64,000 nucleotides of DNA from an uncultured Clostridia bacterium (GTDB lineage: Bacteria > Bacillota > Clostridia > Oscillospirales > Acutalibacteraceae), in the NCBI GenBank assembly GCA_937898195.1, contig CALEJD010000040.1, positions 24,052-88,051 on the forward strand, read 5' to 3'. Of the stretch, positions 17,996 through 64,000 are shown piece by piece. The stretch's first letter is position 1. Each line of letters opens with the position of its first letter. The notes beneath the pieces were generated by a model that saw only the letters and a program-made list of their open reading frames with translations, made no database searches and had not been told where the DNA came from. A program made the translations under genes and the position numbers.

Positions 17996-20992
17996 TTAAC
18001 CACACCTACTCCACCCACAAGACTTGCATATGTTACATCCACCTTCGTAGACAATCTTTGCTCCACATTCCGGGCATACTTCCCCATTTTCGCAACAATC
18101 AACTAACATATCTGGTGTTTCTTCATAAGGGAGACTCTCATGTTGGTAGTCCGTTTCTACACTATCCGAATCGTCAAATACCCTATTTTGAATTTTATCA
18201 TACAAGTCAAGCATGGCGTTTCCCAGCGCAGACGGACATGACGTTCCCTTGCTTGTATCATGCACCAGTTTTGTTCTATCGCAATATGCCTTGCATGGCT
18301 TGATAGACATGGCTTGGTCAATGATGGACTCAATAGGAATACCCCCACGCAGTGCAAGCGACATTAGCCTACTGATAAAGGTAAGGTTGCGCTCGCATCC
18401 ACCACCAGAGCCACATTCCACAAATGTCTCCATCGGTTCACCAGTAACTTCGTCAAAATCAAGGTGCATATATAACTTTCCGCAACCAGTTCTGATTGTT
18501 CGTTTTGCAGAAATTAAATCGTCACTTACATCCAGAATAATACCCCTTGGAATGTCTGTTGGCGTATCGTCGTTTTCTTTGTTACTGTCAGTAGACAAAA
18601 TGCCAACCCTTCTGCAACCATCCCTAAATACGGTGATGCCTTTCAGTCCAGCCTTCCACGCTTCCATATAAATTTTTTCCACTTCTTCTGGTGTGGTGTC
18701 ATTAGGAAGATTTATGGTCGAACTGATACTTGCGTCAACATACATCTGCCAAATGGATTGCATGTTGATTCTATCCATTGGGTGGATGGTGGAAGACGTG
18801 ACTACATACTTCGGTAATGCTCCGTCATCACTAATCCCCATTACTTCCATCAATTCCTTAATTGCCTTTGGGCGTTCTGTATACACCACATCTTCGCCAT
18901 GGAGTGATTTAGTTGTTCTCTGCCATGACGTAGCGTAGTAAGGCTCGATGCCGCCACTTACCTGTAGCATCGTTGACAATGTGCCAGTTGGTGCAATGGT
19001 AAGCAGTTGGGAGTTGCGAAGACCATCACGCATCACAAGGGCTTTGTATTTATCCATATCTTTCATTACGAAGTTGAAATATGTAGAGTCAAGCACCTTC
19101 TCGTTGAACTTTGGATATTCATCGTTTTCTCTTGCAAGGTCGGATGATACTATAATGGCAGTTTTTGCGATGGTCTGCGCTACCTTCCTACATACCTTTA
19201 GCGATGCTTCACTGCCATATTCAACACCAAGTTTAATTAACATATCGGCAATGCCGAATACGCCAAGCCCAATTTGCCGCCAATCTCTCACCGCTTCTCT
19301 CTGTATTTCAAGGGGATGGAGTGGCAATCCTTCATCAAGCACATCATTAAGTGCCTTAACCGCTATTGCGACAGTGTGCTGAAGTTTTTCAAAATCAATG
19401 TGCGATTCGCTAAATGGATTGTACGGATTTACCACAAATTCAGATAGGTTGATGCTACCAAGTAGACAAGACCCACCTGCTGGCAGTGGTTCCTCTGCAC
19501 AGTTATGCACAATCATGTCGTTTGCTACGAAATTGTGATATTTTTCTACCGCAATATCATATACGTCTTCTGTTTCTGAATTCCAGCGTACTTCTTTAAC
19601 ATACCAATTATTACCAACTTGCTTACCTTGGTTTTTATTTAAACGCTTCGCCTTATTTTTTTTAGGCAGAAACCTTCCGTTTCTGGAGTCCCTATTATAT
19701 TCAATAGTTCTTCCCGTGTTGGTAATTTTAGAATGTTCAGAATGACTTAACGCTTTAAGATTCCCAACTCTATTGTTAAATGTGTCTCCATCAACATGAT
19801 GAACATCTAAACCAGTAATATCTTCGTAGTATCCCAATACAAATCTATGCTCTGGCACATATTTTGTTCCACTTAAACCTACAGAAACATGACTCTCTCC
19901 CTTCATTTGACGATTCAAGCCTTTGATTTTGTCGCCCTTCTTGAGTGATTTTGCTTCTACCCACCCACGATTGGTGGTAAAAATCAAGTGGTCTGGGGTA
20001 CAAGTAATATTCCCCTTACCTGTAATTACAGTTATTGTTTGAGCGTCTTTTCGTGTACACCAAATTTTCTTTGCTCTACCAATAGTTAATTCACCATCAG
20101 AATTCATGCAATACACATCTGGTTGTAATCCTACCAAGTCCTTAATGGGTATATTGCCATCCGTGGTTTGAATTAATGTATTGCCAGATAAGCAGGGATT
20201 TGTACCTGCGTATTCAAATTCATCATCTTCGCTCAACAAATTCCAAGCATTAATCCTATCCCAAAACAGAACTCCCGGTTCACCCATATCCCAATTATTA
20301 TACGCAAGTTTTTTAAATAACCTTCTTGCATTAACCGTTTTCGTAATGGTTTGGTTGACTTCGGGGCGTTCGTAAGACAGGGTGATATCTTCGTTTCGCT
20401 CAACCGCTTCCATGAACGCATCTGTAACACGCACAGAAATGTTAGCCGTTGTTACCTTATCCAAATCGGATTTAATATCAATGAACTCTTCGATGTCGGG
20501 ATGGTCGCAAGCAATAGAAATCATAAGAGCACCCCTACGCCCATTTTGTCCAATTAGGCTTGTGGTCATTCCGTATAAATCCATAAAGGACACCGCACCA
20601 GAAGTCTCTTTTGCTGTGTTGTTGACCCTTGCTCCCTTCGGTGCAAGATTTGAAATATCAATCCCAACACCGCCACCATAAGAAAAAGTTCTTGCCAGTT
20701 TACTTGCTGTATCATAAATAGATTCAATACTATCTTGTGGGGGCGTCAATACATAGCAGTTACTGTAGGTAACTTTTATTCCTTCTTTATATAGCCCACG
20801 ATTAGCAAGAATTCTTCCACCAAAAATAAATCTCTTGGCTTCAATTTCTGAACGCACAGATTCATCGCCACCACTTACTCTGTCAAGCCATTCATCAAAT
20901 GACTCGTTATTGTGTCTATACTTCTTTTCCCAGATGTCAATGCCGATTTCGTTGTCTTTTCCGAGCCATTTTACGACTTTTTCATCAACCAT
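17996..20992 (-). CDS. nrdJ: adenosylcobalamin-dependent (class II) ribonucleotide reductase, intein-containing
   Basis: Motifs FIFGGRILAN, YSNCYV, catalytic GTNPC...AEEPLP split by the intein, and a C-terminal CPECG...CNICKSCGWSRCG Zn ribbon. Confidence 0.85.
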   Translation of the reverse strand: MVDEKVVKWLGKDNEIGIDIWEKKYRHNNESFDEWLDRVSGGDESVRSEIEAKRFIFGGRILANRGLYKEGIKVTYSNCYVLTPPQDSIESIYDTASKLARTFSYGGGVGIDISNLAPKGARVNNTAKETSGAVSFMDLYGMTTSLIGQNGRRGALMISIACDHPDIEEFIDIKSDLDKVTTANISVRVTDAFMEAVERNEDITLSYERPEVNQTITKTVNARRLFKKLAYNNWDMGEPGVLFWDRINAWNLLSEDDEFEYAGTNPCLSGNTLIQTTDGNIPIKDLVGLQPDVYCMNSDGELTIGRAKKIWCTRKDAQTITVITGKGNITCTPDHLIFTTNRGWVEAKSLKKGDKIKGLNRQMKGESHVSVGLSGTKYVPEHRFVLGYYEDITGLDVHHVDGDTFNNRVGNLKALSHSEHSKITNTGRTIEYNRDSRNGRFLPKKNKAKRLNKNQGKQVGNNWYVKEVRWNSETEDVYDIAVEKYHNFVANDMIVHNCAEEPLPAGGSCLLGSINLSEFVVNPYNPFSESHIDFEKLQHTVAIAVKALNDVLDEGLPLHPLEIQREAVRDWRQIGLGVFGIADMLIKLGVEYGSEASLKVCRKVAQTIAKTAIIVSSDLARENDEYPKFNEKVLDSTYFNFVMKDMDKYKALVMRDGLRNSQLLTIAPTGTLSTMLQVSGGIEPYYATSWQRTTKSLHGEDVVYTERPKAIKELMEVMGISDDGALPKYVVTSSTIHPMDRINMQSIWQMYVDASISSTINLPNDTTPEEVEKIYMEAWKAGLKGITVFRDGCRRVGILSTDSNKENDDTPTDIPRGIILDVSDDLISAKRTIRTGCGKLYMHLDFDEVTGEPMETFVECGSGGGCERNLTFISRLMSLALRGGIPIESIIDQAMSIKPCKAYCDRTKLVHDTSKGTSCPSALGNAMLDLYDKIQNRVFDDSDSVETDYQHESLPYEETPDMLVDCCENGEVCPECGAKIVYEGGCNICKSCGWSRCG
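19502..20194 (-). mobile_element. 231-aa intein with an HNH homing-endonuclease domain
   Basis: Starts with Cys (CLSGNTLIQT) and has a TPDH block B; HNH motif HHVDGDTFNNRVGNLKALSHSEH; ends IVHN followed by Cys +1; removing it restores TNP-CAEEPLPAGGSC. Confidence 0.85.
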
Positions 20993-44580: not shown

Positions 44581-45255
44581 CTATTTACTCATTGACTCCA
44601 AATAAATATCGTGCTCAAGTTTTGCTTGGTCTATTACGTTAGGAGATATCTGCTCGCTTGCCTTATATATATTAACCACTCCAATAGGTGGCATATCTTC
44701 ATTGTATGGACTGATATCCATATCAACACACACAGTCTTATTGATTAACTCGCTATAATCTCCATCGCACTTCACATGAATAATGTTGTGATAATATGGG
44801 TTGATAATCAATATTCTATCCACATCGTCATACTTGTCCAAATACACTCCAACTATATGTGCTAAAAAAGACGGATGAAACGCAGACGCAGATATATAAT
44901 CAGCCCGGATGCTGTTCGGACTTATAATACCACCATGCATATAGATTCTACTTGCCTTATTAGAATAGGAAGTATCAACTACTTCTCCGTCTTCTGATTC
45001 GGTTTTGATTTCTGATTCAAGCGCATTGAGTTCCTTTGCTACCGAAGTAAACATGCTTGAGCCATTACTTACTCTACCGTAAAAAGATATGTAAGAATCG
45101 TTCACATCAACTACACCTTTGTATGTTAATGTGATATCATTATCGGATGTGCGTCTGACATCTATGTTGAGTTCAGACAGCACACCCTTTAATATTACTT
45201 CGTTCTTACATAATTTGATAGCGTCTTCTATGGTACTAATCATTAGAACGGACAA
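44581..45255 (-). CDS. hypothetical protein
   Basis: Lies within the operon. Confidence 0.6.
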   Translation of the reverse strand: MSVLMISTIEDAIKLCKNEVILKGVLSELNIDVRRTSDNDITLTYKGVVDVNDSYISFYGRVSNGSSMFTSVAKELNALESEIKTESEDGEVVDTSYSNKASRIYMHGGIISPNSIRADYISASAFHPSFLAHIVGVYLDKYDDVDRILIINPYYHNIIHVKCDGDYSELINKTVCVDMDISPYNEDMPPIGVVNIYKASEQISPNVIDQAKLEHDIYLESMSK

Positions 45256-45857
45256 TCATCAGCATCAACTTCTTCAAAGCCAACAGGCAGGTCATCAGTG
45301 GGGGGTGTCTCAACAGGCTTGGCTCCGTTGTTGGCAAACGGATTTGCAGACCTATCGACAGTGGATTCTTGCTCAAGTTTCTTGAATTCGGGCACATCGA
45401 AATCGCCATCCTTAATAGTCTGCACACTCCTGCGTTCAGCCACATAAGTTCTCACCTTGACCTTCGGTGCACCGTTCTTATCCTGCCCCATGTACTGCTC
45501 TTCGCCAATAACGAACCCAATGTTCAACCCAACAAACTTCTGCTCGTCATTGTCCCACTTGTATCCATTGTTTGACTCTTCCAGTGCTGTAACAAATCCC
45601 TTAAAGAACGGAAGAGACTGCTCCTTATAGGACACTACGGTGGAAGGATAGTTGAAGTCACGCTCCTTCTTGCGCTTCTCATACATACCAACAAACTCTT
45701 GCTGGTCTGGTGTAACGGCTTCTGCGATATCATACCCAACACGCAGATATTCCTTTTCTGGAACGTCTTCTACGCTCTTAATCACACAAATAAACCCGCC
45801 TACTGGATTTCTAAACTTGGTAAATTCCTGTACATTATCGAGATTAATTTTCTTCAT
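45243..45857 (-). CDS. DUF669-like putative ssDNA-binding protein with an SSB-type acidic tail
   Basis: Ends EEVDADDCPF (compare the bacterial SSB tip DDDIPF); adjacent to a Sak4-like ATPase. Confidence 0.55.
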   Translation of the reverse strand: MKKINLDNVQEFTKFRNPVGGFICVIKSVEDVPEKEYLRVGYDIAEAVTPDQQEFVGMYEKRKKERDFNYPSTVVSYKEQSLPFFKGFVTALEESNNGYKWDNDEQKFVGLNIGFVIGEEQYMGQDKNGAPKVKVRTYVAERRSVQTIKDGDFDVPEFKKLEQESTVDRSANPFANNGAKPVETPPTDDLPVGFEEVDADDCPF

Positions 45858-46793: not shown

Positions 46794-47637
46794 TATCTTT
46801 TATTTTACTCATGGAATCACCATTATTTACATATATTTCCACGGCGTAGTCTTGGATGTTTTGGAACGCAGTGGCATCATACGTTAACCTACCGTGTACT
46901 TTCCATTTGGGGTCGCCCCGCAGAAGCATCCGCTCTTCTCTCACATCTTCATCTGCATCAATGTAAATTACCATAGGAATTTTCTTCCCATCATAATGTT
47001 TGAGCAGATACTCCACTCCATCAACATCAATGACATACAAATCTGCTTCGTCAATCTGTTCTCTGGTTGCTCCATATAATTCGCCGTTGTAATTGGTAAC
47101 AGCACACATGTTTTCCAATTCATTAAATTTCTTCTCTGAAACAAAGATGTGCGCATCGTCAAACACATTGCGTCTTTGTCTTGTGGTGTATGATTTGACT
47201 TCCTTCAACCCATAGGTTTCTCGCATGTATCTGCACAACATAGATTTGCCGCTCCCAGATTTACCTACGATTAAAATAATATAATCACTCATTGTTCTTT
47301 TCGTCCCTAATTTCTTTTGATACTCTTTTTCCTTTTCTAATGAAGCAATCTCTTTCTTTCTTGATAACAACACACGGATACTTTCGTCTTGTAAGTATCC
47401 ATACACTTTTCTTAATGGGTAGCCGTGCTTGAGCATATCTTTCGCTTTGAATTCTACAAACATTGGCACGTTGCTCAAATCACAATACCTTGATACTTTA
47501 AGACAATTATTTTCTAATTCTTTTTTCTTCCTACGTTTTGCTATCCAATCTTGAAGTTGAATGAATCCAAATGCCATGGTGCCAAATGTGACGATAATCG
47601 CAACACATAGCAACAAAATTGTTGTAAACTTAACCAT
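46750..47637 (-). CDS. guanylate-kinase-like nucleotide kinase with an N-terminal transmembrane anchor
   Basis: TM segment FTTILLLCVAIIVTFGTMAFGFI; P-loop GKSGSGKS followed by SYTTRQRR. Confidence 0.6.
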   Translation of the reverse strand: MVKFTTILLLCVAIIVTFGTMAFGFIQLQDWIAKRRKKKELENNCLKVSRYCDLSNVPMFVEFKAKDMLKHGYPLRKVYGYLQDESIRVLLSRKKEIASLEKEKEYQKKLGTKRTMSDYIILIVGKSGSGKSMLCRYMRETYGLKEVKSYTTRQRRNVFDDAHIFVSEKKFNELENMCAVTNYNGELYGATREQIDEADLYVIDVDGVEYLLKHYDGKKIPMVIYIDADEDVREERMLLRGDPKWKVHGRLTYDATAFQNIQDYAVEIYVNNGDSMSKIKDIAREIYGKYFKKEE

Positions 47638-48467
47638 CAGAACACCTCAATATCCATCGTGTCTCTAACTACCTTCTGTTCATTCCTAATCTTGGCGTAA
47701 CGTGTAGTAACACTGATATCGCTATGCCCCATACATAATTGAATTCTTTCAAGTGGCACATTGTGGTCAAGCATGGACGTTGCCCACAGATGTCTAAAGG
47801 AATGGTTGTGAACATTCTTATCAACTCCAGCCTTTTTAGCGGCGAGTTTAAGAGACTTATTAATCCCTTCCTTCGTCATCGGTGTGCCATTATTACTAAC
47901 AAATAAGTTGTCGATGCAATTATTGCGGATGGTCATATAATGGTTAATATACTCCATGGTCTTGTCATTAATATGTACCATCCTGCGCTTGCCACCCTTG
48001 CCAAGAATATTTACATCATTACCATTAAAGTCATCAACCTTTATGCTAATCAGTTCAGATACACGCATACCAGTAGAAGCCAAGGTTGCCATGATTGCCT
48101 TGGTTCTAACACCATTAGCCGTACACCCTACAGCATTAAGCATCATGTTTACGTCTTCCGATGTTAGCGTTGGCTCTACTTTGTTGGTAATGCGTGGGGG
48201 TTTTAGTTTCTTGGTGGGATTGGATTCCAGCACATCAATGTCAAAAAGAAAATCATAGTATCTTTTCACAGACCCTATACGCCTTGCGATGGTTGCGCTG
48301 GACAGACCTTCGTTGGTCATACAGTTCTTCCACTCAAGCAGGTCTGCGAGTGTGATTTCTTCTTCTGGTTTGTTGACATAGTTAAGCATAGATGTGATGT
48401 CTGCGCCATAACTTGCCTTCGTATTCTCATTATTGAATGTTCCAAGATAAAGATTTAATTTATTCAT
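47637..48467 (-). CDS. tyrosine recombinase (XerC/D / phage integrase family)
   Basis: R in GMRVSEL, HSFRHLW, GHSDISVTTRYAK (R-H-R-H/Y catalytic pattern). Confidence 0.8.
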   Translation of the reverse strand: MNKLNLYLGTFNNENTKASYGADITSMLNYVNKPEEEITLADLLEWKNCMTNEGLSSATIARRIGSVKRYYDFLFDIDVLESNPTKKLKPPRITNKVEPTLTSEDVNMMLNAVGCTANGVRTKAIMATLASTGMRVSELISIKVDDFNGNDVNILGKGGKRRMVHINDKTMEYINHYMTIRNNCIDNLFVSNNGTPMTKEGINKSLKLAAKKAGVDKNVHNHSFRHLWATSMLDHNVPLERIQLCMGHSDISVTTRYAKIRNEQKVVRDTMDIEVF

Positions 48468-53150: not shown

Positions 53151-53455
53151 AACAAAATGGAGGTAAAAAAATGAAAAACACGCTTTCCTTCTTTTTATTT
53201 TTCAAAATCAATTTATAAAACAAAATTAATTTTGAATTTTGAAAATTGAATAATATTTTTGTGGGAGTTTTTGTTTTGCGCACTTTACCCCTTCGCTCGT
53301 CGCAAGCCTATATATTATGGGGGAAACTGATTGCGCGTACTTTACCCCTTTTCACACACCCTATACGCTTTCACACGCTAATGCGTTAATGCGCGTCGCA
53401 CTTTATCACGTTATCACGCTAATGCTTTAGCGAATGAAAGTGCATAATTATTCAC

Positions 53456-53530
53456 GAAGAACGTGCGTTTGCAAACATTTGTTCTTGCCGAAATCAGTCG
53501 CAAACATTCGTTCGCAAACGCACGTTCTTC
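53456..53530. repeat. perfect 17-bp inverted repeat with a 41-nt spacer
   Basis: GAAGAACGTGCGTTTGC ... GCAAACGCACGTTCTTC. Confidence 0.9.
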
Positions 53531-53752
53531 ACGTTCCCGGATACTTGTCAAAATTTTCCTGTAAATTTTTGACAAATTATTTTTTTGCATCTTGAGTGTT
53601 TGCGACTATAGATTCCAATTATCTGCCATTCCGTTCTTAAACATAACTTATTTGTTCAGATTGAACAAACAAGTTTTCTCCGTTTCTGATTCCAATTATC
53701 AGAACGTGAAATATTAAATTGTATTTTTTACTGTATCCTATTGACTATATAC

Positions 53753-53855: not shown

Positions 53856-54121
53856 AAAAAGGGGAAGTGTGAAGTGTAAAAAAAAAAAAAAAAACGAATG
53901 GGAAACGATGGTATTTCTTATTCAAGATGCACGATTCTGTACAATATGCCCATCAGACGCTCTATTTTACGTTTTGGCGGGATTTATAATGTAAAGGATG
54001 TTTATATTGACTACCTATATAAAAGTCCATTAGAACGTAAATTAGGGCTTCCATATATTTCCAATTCAACAGAATCGGGACGCATGCTTTAATGCTTTAG
54101 TGTGATAAAGTGAATGTGGAT

Positions 54122-54158
54122 AAAAAAATGATGGTCTGTGTTAACCATCATTTTTTTT
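54122..54158. terminator. bidirectional rho-independent terminator
   Basis: A7-ATGATGGT-ctgtgtta-ACCATCAT-T8. Confidence 0.75.
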
Positions 54159-61827: not shown

Positions 61828-61848
61828 TTCATACCTCCGATTACATAA

Positions 61849-61990
61849 GGGGTGGTTATCCGATTATCAAAATCAATAAGGGGTGGTTATCCAATTATTG
61901 ATTTCAATTTTCGTTTTTTGATTCTGAAATTGATTTCATTTTTCATTTTTTGATTTTGAAATTGATTTCATTTTTCAATTTTTCATTTTG
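61849..61990. repeat. repeat block 2: two ATAAGGGGTGGTTATCC boxes plus three TGATTTCAWTTTTC units
   Basis: Boxes at 61849-61864 and 61880-61895; same orientation as block 1. Confidence 0.8.
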
Positions 61991-62056
61991 CTATCGTGCG
62001 CACCTTGTACCAATATTTTACACGTTGAATTAAAATCAATTTTCATTTGCAAACGT

Positions 62057-62085: not shown

Positions 62086-62931
62086 TACCTTTTTTTATTT
62101 TGTTTTATTTTTTTTATCATGCGCATGTTATATATAATGTATGCTTTTGATTATAAGTATATTGTTGTTGTTATTTTTACATACAATATTTTTCATATCA
62201 CCTTATAACGCTTTAATTTGCGTTTTAAGCGATTTTTTATATTGAATGATAAATTACCTTACATTGATACAAAATGCTCTTAAAACTTAAAATAAGCACA
62301 TTAAACACTCGTTTTTAGGGATAATCATATAACATCATGTATTATTTTTCTACCATATTATTATATGTGATTTTGATATAAAAAAAATAATCAATTTGTT
62401 ATCAAAATATTACTAATTTGTTTATGAAAAAATAAACAAACATGCTTTAAGAATAAAGAAAAAGATTTTAATGATTTAATACTTTAATTAATTAAAGTAA
62501 AAAAAATGAAACAATACGCTTTAAGAATAAGAAAATAAAATCAATTTTACTTTTTTTCAATTTAACACTTTAATCAATTAAAGTGTTATCAAAAAAAAAC
62601 ATTATCAAAATCAAAATTCAAAATTAAAAGAATTTTTAAGAATAAAAAAATCAAAAAAATTTTCATTTTTTTTTCAAAAATCTCTGTGGCATATATATAT
62701 GGGGAAATATAAAAAACGCACTTTACCCTCCGCAAGCGAGTCCCCCTCTGCTTTTTCACATTAAAGTAATGAATCGAATCAAATTTTAACGCTTTAACGC
62801 TTTATCGCTTTAATTGAATAAAGTGCATATTCATTCATTCCAAATTTTTCCATTTTTGGCAATTTTTCCATTTCTATTTTCTTCCATAAACAAGCGTTTG
62901 CGCTCGCCTGTTCTGTCAGATTTTGGAAGTG

Positions 62932-62965
62932 AACAATTGTTTTTATCCATATAAAAACAATTGTT
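62932..62965. repeat. perfect 15-bp-stem hairpin / cruciform
   Basis: AACAATTGTTTTTAT-ccat-ATAAAAACAATTGTT. Confidence 0.9.
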
Positions 62966-62968
62966 TGT

Positions 62969-62977
62969 TGTGGATAA
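62969..62977. promoter_or_regulatory. perfect DnaA-box 9-mer
   Basis: TGTGGATAA (reverse complement TTATCCACA), 3 nt from the 15-bp hairpin. Confidence 0.4.
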
Positions 62978-64000
62978 CCCACGTTATCATTCTACCACAA
63001 ATTAGTATTAAATACAATGCAAAAATTTTTGCATTTCATACGCTAATACTTTAATGTATGAAAGTTATTTTTATAGTATCGTGCAATTGTATATTGTATA
63101 CACAATTTTAATACTTTAATGCAATAAAGTGCCTCTGTCAGAAACCTTTACAATTTAATACTTTAATTTAATAAAGTATGTATATTGTATACATCTTTTA
63201 ATACTTTATAACTTTAATTGATTAAAGTATTAAAGTATACAATTTTGCATACTGTATACAATATTTTATTGCTTTAATTGAATAAAGTGTTAATGTGTTA
63301 AAATATATATTTGCATATTGTATACAATAGTTTAATGATTTATCATTTTAATATTTTAACTTGCTAAAGTATTTTATACGTTATAACTTTATTGAATTAA
63401 AGTATTAAATTGTTAATATGGTAATATTTTAATGTGTTAAAGTTTTGTATACAAAACACACAAAAATACATTGATTTTTTTATGGTCTGAAATTTATTTT
63501 TTGTATCGGGAAATCGAAAAATAAAGCCTCAAAAAATCTTAAAAAATCGCTTAATTGCAAGGGTTTGAGGCGATTTTTTAACGCTTTAGCGTATTTTTGT
63601 CATGTAGTTATACCTTGAAATTATAAAAATTTTTTTGTTTTTGCACACAAAAACGCTCGAAAGCCTTGTACCGCAAGGGTTTGCCGACTTTTGATTTTGA
63701 AAAATTAGCGCAAAATGACGCCTTATTTTTTGATTTCCCGGTTTTTTGTGTGTTGTGGTCTGATTTTATTGTGTGAAAACACAATAATGATTGGTATAAC
63801 TTTTGCATAGGATAATTTTTGCTTTAGCATATTAAAACTTTAATGCGTTAAAGTAAGAATCACGTACACTTTAGCACGTTAAAATTTTAATGTATTAAAA
63901 TTTCTTGACCAAAAAAATAGTAAAAAATGGTAAAATTTTGGCATAAATTTTGCTACATTATATATAAAAAAGGCACTAAAAAATAATTTCAAAACATGCA

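Follow-up and report, generated by a model that had tools for sequence, protein, structure and literature searches.

A conserved pair of DnaA-box modules in a large uncultured phage as a candidate docking locus for DnaA

We analysed a stretch of 64,000 nucleotides (the window) of contig CALEJD010000040.1 from the assembly of an uncultured Clostridia bacterium. This contig (C40; 106,350 bp, 37.7% G+C) is the largest of a 2.0-Mb, 113-contig assembly and probably represents a complete phage genome; the window covers its positions 24052-88051. A first-pass annotation had noticed a perfect 15-bp hairpin abutting a canonical DnaA box in AT-rich DNA, and had proposed the two together as the core of a replication origin. 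Comparison with related phages demonstrates that the box is a conserved DnaA-type site, while the hairpin is not conserved. Both lie in a non-coding module, here called B, which we tentatively regard as the minor half of a conserved two-part locus at which DnaA of canonical specificity would dock and from which an origin may fire. The annotated element is not the strongest site: a stronger DnaA-box cluster, module C, is located 3.9 kb to the right, beyond the end of the window.

Conserved boxes in modules B and C

The canonical 9-mer TGTGGATAA was found exactly where it had been annotated, at 62969-62977, with TGT between hairpin and box. The window has four perfect boxes where 1.11 would be expected; 4 of 100 shuffled sequences attain four as well. 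In the whole of C40 there are eight, on the plus strand only, against about 1-2 expected. An extended 11-mer, TTGTGGATAAC, occurs exactly three times in the 106 kb, at this site and at C40 90921 and 90935. The concern that a lone 9-mer lies within chance expectation is justified for the window taken alone, but not for the related phages, in which the box is conserved at the syntenic site.

Relatives were traced from homologues of the 105-aa (amino acid) early gene next to the gap to contigs of other metagenomes. This gave L050-L054 and L143-L146 (anchor protein 55-87% identical), the IMG/VR fragment G001 (L041) and the outgroup L142 (49%). No matches were obtained with the IMG/VR protein anchors (the first cassette gene, a 217-aa gene and the 105-aa family). 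Altogether twelve phages were compared, with anchor proteins 49-87% identical to that of the window, and box counts were taken from the 11 with recognisable landmarks. Wherever the contigs reach, they share one layout: early genes, gap B, a cassette of small genes, gap C, and a leftward block with Gam and a deoxynucleotidase. Modules B and C flank a cassette of 5-9 small genes in the window phage, L050-L054 and L143. They are 3.2-4.7 kb apart across the phages, and both are situated in gene-free gaps of 1.3-2.7 kb beside early genes. In the window phage the gap around module B spans 2.4 kb, with a leftward early-gene island on its left and a rightward 2-kb cassette of six or seven small genes on its right. 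The cassette and flanking proteins gave no informative match in Pfam or PHROGs.

About 2.5 kb of B and C sequence from the 11 phages contains 33 perfect boxes and 10 with one mismatch, while only three perfect boxes are found in the other ~195 kb examined (background about 1.1 per 64 kb). The local enrichment is about 800-fold. Half of the mismatches in the modules (5/10, P = 0.003) affect position 5, the N of the consensus TTWTNCACA, and the outgroup L142 contributes two more. In the alignments the boxes stay fixed and the spacers between them change. The noted 9-mer is the right-hand member of an inverted pair, TTATCCACA ... TGTGGATAAC, that is present in module B of 11 phages. At the syntenic site, immediately to the left of a GCAAAAATTTTTGCAT palindrome, 10 of 11 relatives have it in perfect form, and the variant in L050 (TGTGaATAA) is still within TTWTNCACA. 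At the position of the left box, which has decayed in the window phage, L051, L053, L143 and L144 carry a perfect TTATCCACA, and L052, L054, L145, L146 and G001 carry a copy with one mismatch. The number of boxes ranges from 1 to 3 in B and from 2 to 4 in C.

Two arrangements of module B were observed. L051-L053 show a LexA-like box followed by TTATCCACA - (T/A)AAAACAATTGTTT(A)T - TGTGGATAAC, that is, inverted boxes around a 10-bp palindrome, which in L053 (GAACAATTGTTC) is a perfect GAAC-N4-GTTC core of a LexA (Cheo) box. In the second subclade (L054, L143-L146 and G001) this palindrome is missing, and the boxes are 56-67 bp apart, measured from start to start. The elements of module B in the window phage, together with one further perfect box elsewhere in the window, are the following (window coordinates).

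62340..62680, no strand: extremely AT-rich tract, one of the two stretches with the lowest duplex stability in the genome; AT-rich in the relatives too
62717..62728, plus strand: CGCACTTTACCC motif, common to the non-coding modules A (53279-53347), B and C
62845..62887, plus strand: three iteron-like repeats, TTTTTCCATTTTTGG, TTTTTCCATTTCT and TTCTTCCAT, found in this phage and L050 only
62894..62915, no strand: degenerate LexA (Cheo)-box-like element GCGTTTGCGCTCGCCTGTTCTG, from the alignment and a scan for the Cheo core
62932..62965, no strand: hairpin, whose arms hold two copies of the palindrome AACAATTGTT (62932-62941 and 62956-62965)
62943..62951, minus strand: decayed left DnaA box TTATCCAtA at the hairpin apex, inverted partner of the perfect box
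62969..62977, plus strand: perfect DnaA box TGTGGATAA, the right box of module B (extended form TTGTGGATAAC, 62968-62978)
63016..63035, no strand: 20-bp palindrome AATGCAAAAATTTTTGCATT, the conserved right-hand landmark of module B
54115..54123, plus strand: extra perfect TGTGGATAA, isolated beside a CTTTA-N6-TAAAG dyad and unconserved in the relatives

Module C occupies C40 90922-91211 (about 66870-67160 in window numbering) in a second gene-free gap and is the strongest canonical DnaA-box cluster of the entire 2-Mb assembly. In the window phage it consists of two perfect TGTGGATAAC boxes 14 bp apart, a degenerate GGTGGATTG and a GC-rich block, together with an invariant CGCTTTACCC, a LexA-like palindrome TGTTTGCGCAAACA, TTCCATTT repeats and an inverted cTATCCACA. 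The plus strand is GT-rich on its left and CA-rich on its right. Pairs of TGTGGATAA are present in all seven phages for which module C is available, as two to four tandem boxes at variable spacing, and CGCTTTACCC beside them is invariant in the seven. The start-to-start spacings (12, 14, 22-24, 31-33 and 43 bp) are roughly whole helical turns; the gap within the leading pair is 3 bp in L051, L052 and L054, compared to 5 bp in the window phage and L050. Conservation, local enrichment, fixed boxes within changing spacers, the mismatches at position 5 and the helical spacing together provide strong comparative evidence for a function of the 9-mers as sites for a protein of canonical DnaA specificity.

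Further elements link the modules. A third non-coding module, A (window ~53230-53560), has CGC(A)CTTTACCC and LexA-like sites in common with B and C; of the six copies of CTTTACCC in C40, which are on the plus strand throughout, four are inside A, B and C. When C40 is compared with the LexA (Cheo) box CGAAC-N4-GTTCG, just two sites match at 9 or more of 10 positions, and both belong to modules A and C. Repeats of the TTCCATTT type are found three times in B and four to five times in C, in the window phage and L050 only (L054 has similar TTTACCAT repeats), and the first iteron-like 15-mer of module B has an exact copy in module C. BLAST searches with the B region against phages, and with the C region against phages and plasmids, returned spurious matches or none, and no Rfam family was detected within B or C.

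Possible origin firing or control of early genes

We tentatively infer that DnaA could bind both modules and bridge them, and that the locus may have origin function. Host DnaA would occupy B and C, and the two would be joined through DnaA-DnaA contacts, comparable to the bipartite origins of Firmicutes and to the two DnaA-box arrays of P1. Formation of this complex within the most easily melted DNA of the genome could start or license theta replication, and the DnaB-like helicase, the primase and the DnaE polymerase of the phage would then take over. The interleaved LexA-like boxes may render the locus responsive to DNA damage.

Several observations are in agreement with this proposal. The A/T runs reported at 62580-62690 are present, and a nearest-neighbour scan identified 62340-62670 and 63146-63360 as the least stable 100-200-bp duplex windows genome-wide, more than three standard deviations from the mean. 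Neither is contiguous with the B box, from which they are some 250 bp (left) and 170 bp (right) away. The tract at 62340..62680 could serve as an unwinding element, or could represent bent or UP-like DNA. As the first-pass annotation had stated, no initiator is recognisable on the phage: Pfam, PHROGs and NCBIfam revealed no initiator, helicase loader or DnaA domain. Bac_DnaA and Bac_DnaA_C have no match on C40, and the sole dnaA of the assembly is on the host contig C78. An initiator was also sought among the genes adjoining dnaB, where a 204-aa protein looks SSB-like (single-strand-binding) and the model of a 224-aa protein is of low confidence (predicted local distance difference test, pLDDT, 49). 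Most genes are directed away from the B-C region and converge near its antipode at 39.6 kb.

The bipartite oriC of Bacillus subtilis and Clostridioides difficile, with oriC1 and oriC2 flanking dnaA (PMC7561715), resembles the phage locus in having two clusters of canonical boxes separated by genes (2-3 kb), with AT-rich, meltable DNA beside one of them. The setting is also of the Firmicute type, with GGAGG ribosome-binding sites and Cheo-type LexA-like boxes. The phage differs in its box numbers (1-3 and 2-4 versus 9-19 and 5-9), in having small genes of unknown function and not dnaA between the clusters, and in lacking a DnaA-trio or GC-cluster unwinding module as well as any sequence homology. 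In the bacterial origins a cluster was defined as at least three boxes on average less than 100 bp apart (PMC7561715). The window phage falls short of this, with one perfect and one single-mismatch box in B and two perfect boxes plus degenerate ones in C; clusters of that size are seen only in C of L051, L052, L054 and L143 and in B of L051 and L052. Of the basal unwinding system of oriC (a pair of DnaA boxes, a GC cluster, DnaA-trios and an AT-rich element), the consensus box pair is found (in C of 7 phages, and as the inverted pair in B of 11) and the trio array is not.

Theta origins of the P1 or iteron type (PMC4980987) likewise belong to mobile elements, in which a non-coding region that is AT-rich and contains repeats is bordered by a few boxes for host DnaA. 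P1 also has two separate box arrays, and in the window phage iteron-like TTCCATTT repeats are found next to the boxes of B as well as those of C. Unlike these elements, the phage has no recognisable gene for a Rep-type initiator near the locus, its iteron-like repeats are not conserved past the closest relative, and it supplies its own helicase, primase and DNA polymerase III alpha subunit. The partition genes parA and parB were not found on C40 in a search that did not cover ParM and TubZ, and the idea of a phage-plasmid was rejected on this ground.

A number of observations weigh against an origin at this locus. Cumulative skew had been suggested as a check, and the minima of both GC and AT skew are elsewhere, at C40 99053-99146. 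The global GC minimum, at 99053, is some 12 kb to the right of the annotated element, near which (about 88 kb) there is no more than a local dip. The minus-strand genes on both sides of the locus are similar in skew, and no replication-linked asymmetry is visible. Minima and maxima (the latter at ~39 kb) fall exactly at gene strand switches; the skew thus tracks the coding strand and is neither proof nor disproof of an origin. A regular-expression scan for DnaA-trios (5'-[T/A]A[G/A]-3', at least five consecutive, on either strand; with the 4-trio pattern, hits below 15 nt were discarded) found none adjoining B or C in seven phages, and no GC-cluster or basal-unwinding signature is present beside either module. 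The box counts are low, and 20-30 kb separate the locus from the genes for helicase, primase and polymerase. Box clusters are absent from more distant relatives that have a replisome of the same type (57-63% DnaE identity). T5-like phages have conserved pairs of DnaA boxes in an early, untranslated region that does not serve as their origin (10.1101/866236). The operator-like arrays and LexA-like boxes around the locus suit a hub of transcription control equally well. The bin that contains C40, Candidatus Fimenecus, adds two more points. In 38 of 39 Fimenecus-like genomes (loci L059-L107) the flanks of dnaA carry TGTTGAAAA/TTTTCAACA repeats and never TTATCCACA, and the DnaA of the bin has the recognition helix RNHSTVNSS, compared to RDHTTVIHA in B. 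subtilis. The differing positions presumably contact bases, as in the structure of E. coli DnaA domain IV bound to DNA.

The origin core proposed by the annotation is therefore only partly retained: a conserved DnaA-type box, meltable DNA and the failure to find an initiator speak for it, whereas the hairpin is unconserved, the skew minimum is elsewhere and trios are missing.

The alternative that survives best, and which we consider almost as probable as origin firing, is control or anchoring without any start of replication. In this scenario host DnaA and LexA on B and C would gate transcription of the early cassette or local non-coding transcription, or the boxes would titrate or tether DnaA, as has been suggested for those of the T5 injection-stop region, so that early phage development is coupled to host replication or to the SOS status. 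In B and C the DnaA boxes have LexA-core-like boxes (GAAC-N4-GTTC) as immediate neighbours or between them, and such boxes are present in module A too. The locus is located between divergent early operons in a region rich in operator-like palindromes. To the right of the palindrome at 63016..63035 an array of CTTTAAT dyads and TGTATACA palindromes begins, and the remaining gap is packed with CTTTA-N6-TAAAG dyads and TGTATACA palindromes. Weak promoter-like hexamers, read by eye, are present between or just past the B boxes, and the absence of DnaA-trios fits control as well. However, the B boxes are ~900-1000 bp away from the strong early promoters on each side, and no strong promoter overlaps them.

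T5-like phages provide a parallel for control. Their DnaA-box pairs lie in the injection-stop (iss) region of the first-step-transfer DNA (bioRxiv 10.1101/866236), and both systems have canonical and near-canonical boxes in a large untranslated region rich in palindromes and repeats beside early genes for host takeover. Pairs 3 bp apart (here the leading C pair of L051, L052 and L054) and two sites a few kb apart (1.8-4.3 kb in T5) are common to both. So is conservation among phages with diverged coding regions, and so is the association of boxes with inverted repeats, which here holds for B only, the C boxes being tandem. T5 nevertheless represents an unrelated lineage, whereas the window phage has a DnaE-type replisome and a Firmicute-type host. 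The T5 model is itself a hypothesis, and the function of the T5 boxes is only proposed. Moreover, where DnaA boxes of mobile elements have been studied, they mostly belong to origins (PMC4980987).

The protein behind the boxes and the host

In the Fimenecus bin TGTTGAAAA/TTTTCAACA repeats are present in both flanks of dnaA (contig C78 4200-4400 and 5900-6000), and outside the phage no canonical box cluster exists in the genome of the bin. These data point to a non-canonical type of DnaA box in the genus. With canonical boxes on the phage, the host is not Fimenecus, or else the boxes are not read by the DnaA of Fimenecus. We consider the former more likely, because a close relative of the phage was found in 0 of 111 other Fimenecus genomes searched, which makes the link between phage and Fimenecus weak, because no CRISPR-like or other DNA match exists between C40 and the rest of the bin, and because C40 is the compositional outlier of the bin, correlating least of its 38 large contigs with the bin centroid in tetranucleotide composition (r = 0.91). 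Distant DnaE relatives are found in bins of Lachnospiraceae, Oscillospiraceae and unclassified Clostridia.

Alternatively, the 9-mers could be sites of a DNA-binding protein encoded by the phage that shares the DnaA-box sequence by coincidence. We regard this as improbable. The B boxes form a near-palindrome of 33-35 bp, as favoured by dimeric regulators, in the single bin to which the phage is linked both the recognition helix of DnaA and the boxes are of another kind, and about half of the phage genes have no assigned function. The C boxes, however, are tandem direct repeats at variable spacing, which is not operator-like. Over 30 boxes agree with the near-universal DnaA consensus at 9 of 9 positions, and mismatches concentrate at the sole position that DnaA ignores. 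A six-frame search of C40 detected no homologue of DnaA domain IV.

The hairpin and the phage genome

The hairpin was confirmed as annotated, with arms AACAATTGTTTTTAT (62932-62946) and ATAAAAACAATTGTT (62951-62965) around the loop CCAT (62947-62950). Its folding energy as single-stranded DNA is -15.8 kcal/mol (z = -5.4), a stability that none of 200 shuffles attained. The 106-kb contig contains no more than three perfect hairpins with stems of 15 bp or longer, the other two being GC-cored bidirectional terminators, and 20 Markov-2 simulations produced none. The hairpin thus exceeds chance. Its palindrome is duplicated in the window phage and L050 only, present as a single copy in L051-L053 and absent from L054, L143-L146 and G001; the left copy, GAACAATTGTTT, is a GAAC-N4-GTTC LexA core with one mismatch. 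At the position of the degenerate LexA-like element (62894..62915), L051 has CGAACACTTGTTC and L053 has GAACATCCGTTC, beside the left box. In the window phage the palindrome has doubled and the left box has decayed; the two palindrome copies pair with each other and leave the decayed box as the loop region. In L050 the left arm is one T shorter, which results in a 1-nt bulge, and the loop reads CCGT.

The perfect hairpin is limited to the window phage, with an imperfect version in L050, and the boxes are kept; the conserved feature is therefore the box pair and not the hairpin, which is a recent, lineage-specific rearrangement and not the core of the element. An origin core in the literal sense, with one box and a hairpin essential as a cruciform or as an initiator-loading site, is very improbable. 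The hairpin is statistically exceptional and abuts the box in highly meltable DNA, but it is missing in 10 of 11 relatives that keep the boxes, it is imperfect, bulged and changed in its loop in the closest relative, and its apex is a decaying DnaA box. Chance without function, to which a lone perfect 9-mer in the window could be ascribed, is effectively refuted by the syntenic conservation in 11 relatives and the local enrichment. The striking hairpin is evolutionary noise around a conserved box pair, with the main cluster beyond the window.

Other features were noted around module B. The minus-strand open reading frame at 62794-62982 was rejected as a gene, since its frame is not conserved (a 1-nt deletion in L050, large indels in more distant relatives). 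Two tandem 31-nt repeats, ATAAGGGGTGGTTATCC(G/A)ATTAT, at 61845-61906 immediately precede the ribosome-binding site of the 105-aa early gene on the minus strand and occur in three copies in G001 and L142. Their core, TTATCCAAT, resembles a DnaA box with two mismatches; they may represent an operator element or a leader RNA. Between the early gene and its promoter there are three tandem repeats of 32 nt (ATTGATTTCAATTTTCGTTTTTTGATTCTGAA; 61897-61992). Further right in the gene-free gap, at 63527-63580 and 63655-63700, there are two conserved stem-loops with T-runs (GCCTCAAA...TTTGAGGC; CCTTG..CAAGG), also found in G001, that may form the ends of short non-coding transcripts starting near module B.

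The ends of C40 (1-33 and 106318-106350) overlap in a tRNA-Tyr-like sequence with one mismatch. These near-identical halves indicate a probably complete, circularly assembled phage genome, and suggest a break of the circular assembly at paralogous copies of the tRNA. Among named relatives, the phage is closest by DnaE to large Clostridioides difficile phages (~41% identity). Besides DNA polymerase III alpha (DnaE), the phage encodes a RecJ-like nuclease, DnaB-like and RecD-like helicases, RtcB, a primase, a Sak4-like annealase, three N6/N4 methyltransferases and an intein-carrying ribonucleotide reductase, whose large subunit (window 17996-20992, minus strand) is split by an intein with an HNH endonuclease domain. 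The 204-aa protein mentioned above (45243-45857, minus strand) is at least 66% identical across more than 160 metagenomic clusters. Its C-terminal DDCPF tip and weak, non-significant OB-fold matches to single-strand-binding proteins suggest that it is the single-strand-binding protein of the phage. A short XerC/D-like tyrosine recombinase of 276 aa (47637-48467, minus strand) is encoded inside the replication module and may be a dimer resolvase, not an integrase. Six tRNA genes are close to the ends of C40. A full-length ROOL RNA (Rfam RF03087, 339 bits) at C40 105093-105666 (L001 18743-19316) directly precedes the tRNA cluster, which runs Gln, Pro, Asp and, across the contig junction, Tyr-like, Leu, Met and Thr.

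Three points are new here, namely the bipartite arrangement, the interleaving with LexA-like boxes and the mismatch between the box type of the phage and that of its bin. A clade of large uncultured Firmicute phages with a helicase, a primase and DNA polymerase III alpha of their own, but no initiator, might fire a miniature, two-part, chromosome-like origin through host DnaA under LexA gating; we consider this rather unlikely as it stands. If DnaA docks at this locus, the group would join the few phages known or suspected to borrow the chromosome initiator of their host. Such a dependence is poorly documented outside plasmid-prophages such as P1 and is not known from large Firmicute phages. 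The box type may also serve as a clue to host range, with canonical TTATCCACA in the phage and the TGTTGAAAA type in its bin; if such an origin fired by host DnaA exists, the box type, which is canonical and not that of Oscillospirales such as Fimenecus, would report the true host lineage. With DnaA docking, the locus would offer a concrete and testable site for origin mapping and for the engineering of uncultured gut phages.

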